Virus record (IMG/VR): IMGVR_UViG_3300021430_000613
Span: 7,767 to 71,766 of that record
Direction: 5' to 3' (one strand)
DNA length: 64,000 nucleotides
Source of the DNA: a virus
Lineage: Duplodnaviria; Caudoviricetes
The position numbers and the translations under genes were made by a program. Positions 45,855 to 48,003 of this stretch are shown piece after piece. Below the pieces are notes generated by a model. It was not told the DNA's origin. It saw nothing but the letters and a program-made list of their open reading frames with translations, and did no database searches. The stretch's first letter is position 1. The number at the start of each line of letters is the position of its first letter.

Positions 45855-45900
45855 TTCATTATGATTTTTCATTGTGATTTATTGAATGATTTTTATGAGA

Positions 45901-45967
45901 CGAGCTTACGCTCATCTGTTTATGTTTTTGTTTGATCGCTTACGCTCACAGTACAAAAACATAAACA
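45901..45967. repeat. 15-bp perfect inverted repeat plus an 11-nt direct repeat
   Basis: TGTTTATGTTTTTGT (45917-45931) / ACAAAAACATAAACA (45953-45967); GCTTACGCTCA at 45904 and 45938. Confidence 0.85.
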
Positions 45968-45999
45968 ATAATTAATATTAATTGATATTCTGATAGGAA

Positions 46000-46380
46000 T
46001 TGAGGCCATACTACCCCCTGCTCGGGGGATAGTATTGAAAATGGATTGATTTTCTGATTAGGTGATAATCCATATAGACATTCATCCTTGGTTGTATACC
46101 GGCTGGCGGAGAACCTATTTCCAGCATTAAGATGATCTACCCGAAACTTTCGTTTCATTCTCGGTTATAGTTTTAACTAAGCCACATTTATACCATGTCT
46201 AAGGTATTAAATGCGTCGCAGTCGTGTTGTCACACGGGCTGTGATCCTTTTTGCGATTTGTCTGACCAAGGCTTTTCGCTGTATTCCTCGATTGGAGTGA
46301 GTTTGATAACCTGTTCGTTACCCTTTCACTGCGGTGGCAACACCACCATCATGCGTGTCAGTATGTTACAGAATATTAGG
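46000..46380. ncRNA. Candidate structured non-coding RNA (or structured origin)
   Basis: GC-richer gene-free stretch with at least 5 hairpins (46008-46035, 46102-46125, 46143-46156, 46217-46243, 46333-46347). Confidence 0.45.
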
Positions 46381-46389
46381 GAATTTTTA

Positions 46390-46432
46390 AATGTGCCTAT
46401 AAATGAGAATAATTAATGTGCCTATAAATGAG
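46390..46432. repeat. Two 18-nt direct repeats (period 25)
   Basis: AATGTGCCTATAAATGAG at 46390-46407 and 46415-46432. Confidence 0.9.
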
Positions 46433-46633
46433 TTTTTGATATTAGTATAATGTTACTTCTTAGTAACATACTTTTTATAAGTATTATGTTGGTATAAAAT
46501 CAATTTCTTCTTTAAGATTTTTCAATTTTTTTTATAAAAAAATTTATAATAATTGACCTAAAGATTTATTCTATATATAATAGAAATGTGAACGATGCCT
46601 ACGTTCACTTATAAAAAAGCCAGTATGAGAACT

Positions 46634-46662
46634 AACCAGGGTAAGTTTAACTTACCCTGGTT
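46634..46662. terminator. Perfect 14-bp inverted repeat after the 265-aa ORF (terminator or cruciform)
   Basis: AACCAGGGTAAGTT-t-AACTTACCCTGGTT. Confidence 0.7.
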
Positions 46663-46667
46663 TTGTT

Positions 46668-47465
46668 TTATCTGCGTGGTTTTCTTGGAAAAGAATCAGT
46701 TAGATTAATTAAATATCCAGATTTGTTATCTTTAAACTCAACTGCCCACGATAATTTTTCACTGTGGTACCGAGGCATTGATGATTTAATTACCAAAATT
46801 GTAAAAGGTAGATCTGATAGATCGTAGTCTTTTACATGTAAAGGTTCTTTATTATATGGAGTGTATATATCTGATCCTCCTGTTGTTTCGTTAAATTGGA
46901 TCTTAACTAATCCTTTTGTTAATTGTATATGTCTTTTACTTGCCAGAGTATGATTCTGCAACATTTGCAATGGTGCTCGTAATGTTTCAGTTTTTTGTCC
47001 AGCTAGCACGATACCTGCTTGATTATACACATAATTAAATGTTTCACTTACAATGTTTCGTCGAATAACATTATGAATGTTGCCTGGGATGGTTCCAATT
47101 TGCATTACTCCAATTGTTTTACTATCAAGACGAGGTGATCCATCGCTGTTGTATAGTACACCACTATATGATTTAAAATGATCGGGCCATTCATTAACTT
47201 GTGTTTTTGTTAATGTTTCTGGATCAGTAGCAAACTGGGCACATGTTTCGAGTAATTTAATATCTCGATCTTTGATTGCAAGAATGTCCTGAGGAAATGC
47301 TTTTGTTCTAGCATTAAAATGATAAACAACACTGTTATAATATTTGAGCTCTTCTAGCATAAAATATTTTAAATTTCTCTCAGTTTTAAGTGATACGTTA
47401 AGTTCAAAAATTTTCTTATTATATGGTTTCTTTTTACGATTTAATTCAGTCATGTAGTTCTCCAA
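46668..47465 (-). CDS. Hypothetical protein resembling the TnpB/Cas12f WED-REC lobes without RuvC
   Basis: The ORF itself is clear. The fold call rests on L-x9-L-x10-YN spacing and the C-terminal beta-strand pattern only. Confidence 0.4.
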   Translation of the reverse strand: MENYMTELNRKKKPYNKKIFELNVSLKTERNLKYFMLEELKYYNSVVYHFNARTKAFPQDILAIKDRDIKLLETCAQFATDPETLTKTQVNEWPDHFKSYSGVLYNSDGSPRLDSKTIGVMQIGTIPGNIHNVIRRNIVSETFNYVYNQAGIVLAGQKTETLRAPLQMLQNHTLASKRHIQLTKGLVKIQFNETTGGSDIYTPYNKEPLHVKDYDLSDLPFTILVIKSSMPRYHSEKLSWAVEFKDNKSGYLINLTDSFPRKPRR

Positions 47466-47544: not shown

Positions 47545-48003
47545 ATGGACACAGGTCATTGGCAATGTAAGTTTCAGTTTAATCCAATTGATTGGTTTGG
47601 ATTCATTTATAGAATCACAGAAATTGATACTGGACGAGAATATATCGGTAAAAAACAATTTACCAACTTGAAACGTAAGAAGATTAAAGGACGAAAAAAC
47701 AGAAAACATATTAGAAGTGATTCTAATTGGATGGAATATACTGGCAGCTCAAATGAACTTAATGAAGCTATTGAAAAGAATGGAAAAGATAAGTATCAAT
47801 TTGAAATTATATCTTTACATAAAACAAAAGGCTCATTGGCATACGCAGAAGTACGTCGTCAAATTTTAGAAAATGTTTTATGTAAAAGATTAGATGACGG
47901 CATAACTAGAAAATACTATAACAAATATATTAATGCCGTTAAATTTCTTCCACCAAACGAAACACTTGAGGAAAGCCAACATCGCAGTTACGATGATATT
48001 TGA
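47545..48003 (+). CDS. GIY-YIG endonuclease (Seg-like)
   Basis: FGFIYRITEIDTGREYIGKKQF, W.EYTGS, E..Q; CATAAATA at 47532-47539. Confidence 0.85.
   Translation: MDTGHWQCKFQFNPIDWFGFIYRITEIDTGREYIGKKQFTNLKRKKIKGRKNRKHIRSDSNWMEYTGSSNELNEAIEKNGKDKYQFEIISLHKTKGSLAYAEVRRQILENVLCKRLDDGITRKYYNKYINAVKFLPPNETLEESQHRSYDDI

Follow-up and report, generated by a model that had tools for sequence, protein, structure and literature searches.

A predicted pseudoknotted RNA of about 380 nt, conserved in uncultivated jumbo phages beside the gene for a protein with a TnpB/Cas12f-like fold

What does a phage keep in an 813-nt gap between convergent genes? The gap lies in the window analyzed here, a 64,000-nt stretch of a 71.8-kb IMG/VR contig that we estimate to cover ~18% of a genome. 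The phage's portal and baseplate-hub proteins are 30-50% identical to those of the T4-like jumbo phages Rak2, PA5oct, Atu_ph07 and XaC1. A sequence-only reading had marked positions 46000-46380 as a hairpin-dense non-coding region, and had suggested a novel phage ncRNA, possibly the scaffold or guide of an adjacent TnpB-like protein, or alternatively a structured replication origin. The region is real, though its conserved core sits slightly further left, at 45988-46365. The locus is laid out as follows.

ends 45633, plus strand: gene for the gp26-like baseplate-hub protein, real length 284 aa
ends 45854, plus strand: orf64, a 64-aa ORF downstream of the gp26-like gene
45899-45916, plus strand: hairpin A (GACGAGC/GCTCATC), after orf64, with a stem sequence conserved among relatives
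45919-45968, plus strand: hairpin B, after orf64, with a U-run next to it in relatives
45988-46365, minus strand (probable sense): conserved core of the structured RNA (type 1), ~380 nt, delimited by conservation in alignments of 17-28 unique homologues
46365-46370 and 45988, minus strand: approximate 5' end (CAUACUGAC...) and 3' end of the RNA, respectively
46391-46432, minus strand: two copies of a 17-nt motif (plus strand ATGTGCCTATAAATGAG; minus strand ...TAGGCAC...), just upstream of the RNA in the minus sense
46668-47465, minus strand: p265, a 265-aa ORF; beyond it lie a SegE-like GIY-YIG gene and gp46/gp47

The composition of the region and its lack of coding potential are as had been described. 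GC content at 46000-46400 is 0.40-0.44 against 0.19-0.33 in the flanks, and the region's only ORFs (70 aa on the minus strand and 73 aa on the plus strand) have no Pfam or PHROG match. The sequence-only reading had also failed to recognize RNase P, tmRNA, tRNA or group I motifs, and dedicated searches agree. The Rfam 15 covariance models, which include RNase P, tmRNA, group I and II introns, HEARO, GOLLD, ROOL, OLE and riboswitches, gave no match at the gathering threshold, whether across the entire window or in any of 12 homologous loci, and ARAGORN found 0 tRNA or tmRNA genes in the 64 kb. Permissive Rfam matches to mir-1246, RT-14 and a group II D5 fragment were at chance level (all E > 1). 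We rejected a group I intron on the grounds that the flanks are neither conserved nor coding exons and that RF00028 does not match, and a group I core on the grounds that the pseudoknot described below is of a simple loop-to-downstream type with 1-2 nt between its strands. The four published ncRNAs of PA5oct (PMC7318152) are located elsewhere. The region has no DNA match among GenBank phages, none of 185,579 prokaryote species genomes (GTDB) contains its RNA motif, and we found no description of this RNA in the literature. The absence of matches across Rfam 15, ARAGORN, GenBank phages and the prokaryote genomes argues that this predicted RNA is a new, previously undescribed family.

Single-sequence folding of the window is only modestly better than that of shuffled sequences (z -2.3 for the plus strand and -3.1 for the minus strand), so it is comparison across relatives that makes the case for an RNA. 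Many metagenomic relatives were recovered with gp26 as the protein query; in their contigs the gap is again present, showing blocks of identity and hairpins with visible compensation. A search with one conserved motif retrieved 28 viral contigs, and a relaxed-motif search added 19 metagenome loci. Scans of viral contigs with p265 or gp26 as single proteins gave no matches, but a gp26 profile did succeed, yielding 36 loci picked irrespective of whether the RNA was present; 23 of them have it. Overall, over 40 related loci on viral or metagenome contigs contain the RNA, in every case between the gp26-like baseplate-hub operon and the gp46/47 block, and always downstream of gp26-orf64 in a constant relative orientation.

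Alignment of these loci supports a fold of at least 13 predicted helices and one H-type pseudoknot, listed below together with the single-stranded element at the RNA's 3' side.

45988-45997, minus strand: rep1, copy 1 of a 10-nt lineage-specific motif (TTCTGATAGG in plus sense); part of the single-stranded 3' tail when the RNA is read in minus sense
46008-46035, minus strand: H1, hairpin ATACTACCCCC/GGGGGATAGTAT, which folds in all 27 homologues with differing stem sequences
46041-46073, minus strand: H2, hairpin (ATGGATT/AATCCAT) displaying rep2 (46052-46062) in a large loop
46083-46134, minus strand: H3 (CATC/GATG), enclosing H4 and H5; 3/4 H3 pairs covary
46089-46101, minus strand: H4, hairpin; 3/3 pairs covary
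46102-46106 with 46121-46125, minus strand: H5 (GCTGG/CCAGC), 98% paired; 2 pairs covary
46109-46164, minus strand: pseudoknot of GAGAA (46109-46113, in the H5 loop) with TTCTC (46160-46164)
46143-46156, minus strand: H6, hairpin (GAAAC/GTTTC) with a GAAA loop on this strand
46165-46185, minus strand: H7
46187-46215, minus strand: H8
46215-46245, minus strand: H9 (CGCAGTCG.../...GGGCTGTG), whose outer 7 bp include 4 covarying pairs
in the H8-H9 section 46187-46252, minus strand: conserved junction ATCCTTTTT (minus sense AAAAAGGAU)
46262-46361, minus strand: H10 (CTGAC at 46262-46266 with GTCAG at 46357-46361), closing the H11-H13 junction; 93% paired, 4/5 pairs covary
inside the H10 junction, minus strand: H11, 94% paired
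46296-46330, minus strand: H12
46333-46347, minus strand: H13 (GGTGG/CCACC)

RNAalifold, run on 17 sequences, predicted 39 pairs, 25 of which show double compensatory changes. Explicit structures were then scored by the percentage of paired cells against slid partners and against 500 shuffles. In the core domain (46077-46186; H3-H7 and the pseudoknot), 93.6% of cells are paired, compared with 36-45% for slid partners; 19/27 pairs have changed on both sides, a level that none of the 500 shuffles reached. The 3' domain in the plus sense (46243-46369; H10-H13) is 84% paired against 34-54%, with 17/25 pairs compensated and again 0/500 shuffles as good. The pseudoknot GAGAA/UUCUC is paired in 100% of sequences, and 4/5 of its pairs have changed on both sides. 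Its UUCUC strand precedes a near-invariant CGGUUAU (CGGTTAT) segment that accompanies H6 and H7. Covariation among the homologous loci thus favors a novel phage ncRNA, and the five hairpins originally listed are H1, H5, H6, H9 and H13, all of them helices kept by compensatory change. These comparisons confirm that positions 45988-46365 of the window are, as far as alignments can tell, a conserved structured RNA, and neither coding sequence nor chance hairpins.

The sense of this RNA is less immediate. The G-U pairs initially led us to infer the plus strand, and the counts of G-U versus A-C do lean that way (78 vs 32). On inspection pair by pair, the plus-leaning G-U pairs come mostly from one 3-bp helix without true covariation, or from register shifts, and the plus strand was dropped after this inspection and tests of loops, composition, energy and context. 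Among minimum-free-energy hairpin loops there are 23 GNRA tetraloops on the minus strand vs 2 on the plus strand; GCAA, GUAA, GCGA and GAAA loops recur on three different hairpins with covarying stems on the minus strand, and the H1 loop there is a GNRA-type tetraloop (GCAA, GUAA or GCGA) in most homologues. Unpaired columns on the minus strand are 39% A and 16% C, a composition typical of structured RNAs. The alifold consensus energy is -113 kcal/mol for the minus strand vs -106 for the plus strand, and the minimum free energy is lower on the minus strand in 20/28 sequences. Finally, the paralogous RNAs introduced below are co-directional with both of their flanking genes only in the minus sense. 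Promoter-like signals, described below, lie ahead of the RNA in this sense as well. The RNA is thus most likely read from the minus strand, which would make it co-directional with, and downstream of, p265.

Were the RNA on the plus strand, it would instead form a structured 3' extension of the late gp26-orf64 transcript, either released from that transcript by processing or controlling its stability or termination in cis. Beyond the wobble counts, what speaks for such an extension is that the RNA lies immediately downstream of gp26-orf64 in an unvarying relative orientation, and that one lineage (L013) has no terminator between orf64 and the RNA. In most relatives, however, a hairpin and U-run terminator separates the two, the paralogues are far from gp26, and loops, unpaired-base composition, energies and paralogue context favor the minus strand; we consider this extension unlikely. 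Given the U-run after hairpin B in relatives, hairpins A and B are probably the terminators of the plus-strand hub operon. The stem of hairpin A is preserved as GATGAGC/GCTCATC in different lineages, an unusual trait in a plain terminator.

The region could instead act as DNA, be it as an origin of replication or as a site for packaging, with iterons and an AT-rich stretch for unwinding. In favor of this are its surroundings in the window, where a stretch of 19% GC and the two 17-nt direct repeats adjoin it. In the lineages L007 and L060, however, the AT-rich, repeat-bearing stretch is missing and the RNA lies ~30 nt from p265, and the conserved part carries the helix-preserving double substitutions and pseudoknot that are signatures of RNA. 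The origin proposed by the sequence-only reading finds no support in this comparison, and we regard a DNA-level element as very improbable. In the closest relative, whose gp26 is 85% identical, the 158-kb Logan contig (L002:6077-6631) terminates among the repeats a little beyond the RNA; the 17-nt direct repeats may have broken the assembly there.

The sequences at and beyond the ends of the RNA hint at how it might be expressed and what it might recognize. Relatives have 1-3 copies of AGGCAC/AGGCTC upstream of the RNA in the minus sense, and 3-10 nt ahead of its start is a -10-like hexamer, with a mean of 4.1/6 matches, compared with 2.9 for a control window. No RNA run was listed among the sequencing runs that contain the sequence, and two metatranscriptomes from the project behind the best DNA run had no coverage of the stretch; neither result speaks for or against expression. 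At the other end, the 3' tail beyond the conserved end is variable among relatives. The motif copies rep1 and rep2 lie on either side of H1, and their sequences change in step from one lineage to the next (CUGAU, CUGGU, UUCGU, CAUGU). No complementary partner for them was found in cis, and pairing of rep1 with rep2 was rejected for lack of stacked covarying pairs. A hammerhead reading of CUGAUGAG in rep2 was rejected because the motif is not conserved and neither GAAA nor a stem III follows.

The RNA also has paralogues. A search with the core model revealed a second full-length type-1 copy in one genome (G010; L115:1314-1696), 2 kb from the contig start and between a holin-like ORF and a 375-aa ORF. 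The two type-1 copies in this genome have differing versions of the repeated 10-nt motif, which argues that the motif is specific to each RNA rather than a site for one common protein. A larger RNA of ~560 nt (type 2) occurs in related jumbo-phage contigs (L121:1380-1960, L124, L127-L133). It shares with type 1 the helices H1 and H3-H5, the compensated pseudoknot and the AUCC-U-run junction; two copies are present in the complete 453-kb genome G008, and others in five further contigs, in varied gene contexts. Matches to the H5-motif pattern within Gly/Ala-rich coding repeats of complete genomes were discarded.

A tree of gp26 shows how the type-1 RNA at its usual locus is distributed. It contains 33 distinct rows with the RNA, with RNA-less rows nested inside (the L044/L047/L051 clade and L054), while the cultured outgroups XaC1, Phosso and PA5oct are without it; the core model found nothing credible in those three phages. 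One locus, L071, branches near the base of the clade. Loci without the RNA have only a terminator hairpin between orf64 and p265. This nesting points to the RNA being old within this jumbo-phage clade, vertically inherited, and lost several times. In another locus (L055:3733-4100), the 5' domain in the plus sense (rep1, H1, rep2) is retained, and the core has diverged past detection by the model; this RNA may be a decaying copy.

The neighbor p265 was placed in no family by sequence methods, and tblastn against GenBank phages gave no match. An AlphaFold2 model built from 20 homologues (pLDDT 88) was more informative: nearly all of its top 30 Foldseek matches are Cas12 proteins (Cas12f, Cas12n, Cas12k) or TnpB, with weak E-values, and VIA-align superimposes 160 residues on Cas12f residues 3-209 (Z 9.8, 3.5 Å). 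Structural alignments to TnpB residues 3-173 and to dCas12f give similar values (Z 9.3 for the dCas12f-gRNA complex 9n9c). The model thus suggests that p265 has the fold of the WED-REC half of TnpB/Cas12f, the half that binds guide RNA, and lends support at the level of predicted fold to the earlier description of p265 as TnpB-like. The protein ends at the point where RuvC would start, with neither an active nor an inactivated RuvC remnant and no TNB zinc domain, and the TNB domain (PF07282) is absent from five related genomes. This size is typical of the family, which has 193 clusters at 50% identity; the 150 members listed are all at most 345 aa, and most are 240-345 aa. In every examined locus p265 lies between the gp46/nuclease genes and the gp26 operon. 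In lineages without it, a diverged p265 was rejected as an explanation for the ORFs at this place, which encode a PDDEXK_15 nuclease and an unrelated 115-118-aa protein (G3 clade).

Could the RNA, then, be an omegaRNA-like partner of p265? Here p265 and the RNA would be an exapted TnpB/Cas12f-type module, in which a nuclease-free, WED-REC-only protein binds this RNA; we see this partnership as possible, and are equally tentative that the RNA directs p265 to a nucleic-acid target for regulation or interference. Several features are consistent with a partnership. p265 is predicted to have the guide-RNA-binding half of TnpB/Cas12f; a gene followed by the RNA on one strand is the TnpB-omegaRNA layout, provided the minus strand is correct; and in the L007 and L060 lineages the RNA begins ~30 nt after the p265 stop. 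Both RNA and p265 are restricted to one phage clade, and the RNA combines a pseudoknotted scaffold with a variable 3' tail. Next to the gene for a distant p265 homologue of marine origin, and downstream of it, comes a 909-nt gap that is highly structured (z -6.8); this gap contains a weak match to the RNA core, co-directional and with a compensated H5.

Against this, each is found without the other. The complete genome G006 (518 kb, with terminal repeats) has one RNA and no p265, and at least two lineages (the L044 clade and L054) have an intact p265 and a terminator hairpin in place of the RNA, on contigs that are 4-13% complete. The type-2 and second-copy RNAs have unrelated proteins and no p265-like protein as neighbors, so that, together, these cases make an obligate pairing of RNA and p265 untenable. 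Known omegaRNA and Cas12f sgRNA scaffolds are ~100-250 nt, and the present RNA is 2-3x larger than known omegaRNAs. The first 20 nt of the 3' tail after the conserved end, where a guide would be expected to lie, match only themselves in the complete genome G008. Furthermore, the association of RNA and p265 is inseparable from the conserved synteny of the locus. The suggestion of a scaffold or guide for a TnpB-like protein is therefore borne out in the fold of p265 and, if the minus strand is right, in the position of the RNA downstream on the same strand, but not in the RNA's occurrence. Weighing both sides, we rank an independent trans-acting RNA first and a p265 partnership second.

The locus can also be compared with characterized systems. 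Like a TnpB omegaRNA or Cas12f sgRNA, the present RNA would, if minus-sense, lie just 3' of, and co-directional with, a protein of WED-REC fold; its predicted scaffold has several helices and a pseudoknot, and the 3' tail after it is not conserved. Unlike them, it is ~380 nt long and its candidate partner lacks RuvC and TNB; and in contrast to TnpB systems, the locus has no transposon ends or tnpA, and no target was found for the 3' tail. The RNA-guided transcription factors TldR and dCas12f (10.1101/2023.11.30.569447; PMC13472631) are domesticated relatives of TnpB/Cas12f whose nuclease is inactive, and the gene for a guide RNA lies downstream of them. These proteins keep an inactivated RuvC, whereas p265 stops before it, and their setting is bacterial, whereas p265 belongs to phages and no guide-target pair was identified. 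It is conceivable, if doubtful, that jumbo phages have likewise domesticated a TnpB/Cas12f module, in which p265 and a large omegaRNA-like RNA make up a nuclease-free, RNA-directed binding complex. Were that so, the co-varying 10-nt motifs or the 3' tail might supply target specificity and the paralogous RNAs further specificities, a suggestion we make with similar reserve. The locus in any case raises a testable question: can descendants of TnpB do without any nuclease domain, leaving more of the work to the RNA?

The reading we favor, and hold to be about evenly balanced between right and wrong, is that of an independent, trans-acting scaffold RNA on the minus strand. The locus would be a free-standing gene for a ~380-nt structured RNA with at least 13 helices and one H-type pseudoknot, passed on vertically within a clade of uncultivated jumbo myoviruses that has Rak2, PA5oct and Atu_ph07 as distant relatives. 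Minus-strand transcription would start just after the repeated AGGCAC motif and the -10-like element, downstream of p265, and the transcript would end before the convergent baseplate-hub operon. By virtue of its fold, the RNA would work in trans as a component of a ribonucleoprotein, and would expose the lineage-specific 10-nt motif in two single-stranded copies, the first in the H2 loop and the second in the 3' tail. Judging from this anatomy, the two copies may be specificity elements, recognized by a dimeric protein or used in base pairing. Where p265 and the RNA are both present, the protein may bind the RNA, though the RNA does not depend on it.

RNAs that are both large and intricately folded are rare, and the majority of those known turned out to be ribozymes or the cores of ribonucleoproteins. 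To our knowledge, very few RNA genes have been described from phages of 300-520 kb. The RNA described here and its larger paralogue are a new, well-supported candidate for this class from such phages, and the alignment and structure suffice for an Rfam-type family, cryo-EM and binding assays even if p265 proves unrelated. The closest counterparts in kind are GOLLD, ROOL and OLE, which are likewise large, multi-helix RNAs with intricate folds and pseudoknots that came out of comparative metagenome analysis; GOLLD and ROOL are also phage-borne and, like the present RNA, of unknown function (PMC12286853). The present RNA differs from all three in having no Rfam match to any of them, in its smaller size, in its phage group, and in not lying beside tRNA genes, none of which occur in the window.

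Two further features of the neighborhood deserve mention. The plus strand at 46553-46662 has a near-consensus sigma-70 promoter (TTGACC, 17 nt, TATAAT) and, downstream of it, a hairpin of 7 bp and then a strong terminator; this unit would yield a plus-strand transcript of ~75 nt, and is not conserved in the relatives checked. Beside gp46, at 47545-48003 on the plus strand, the window encodes a SegE-like GIY-YIG homing endonuclease at a place where most relatives have a PDDEXK_15 nuclease gene, which, judged from sequence, looks like an exchange of mobile nuclease genes.
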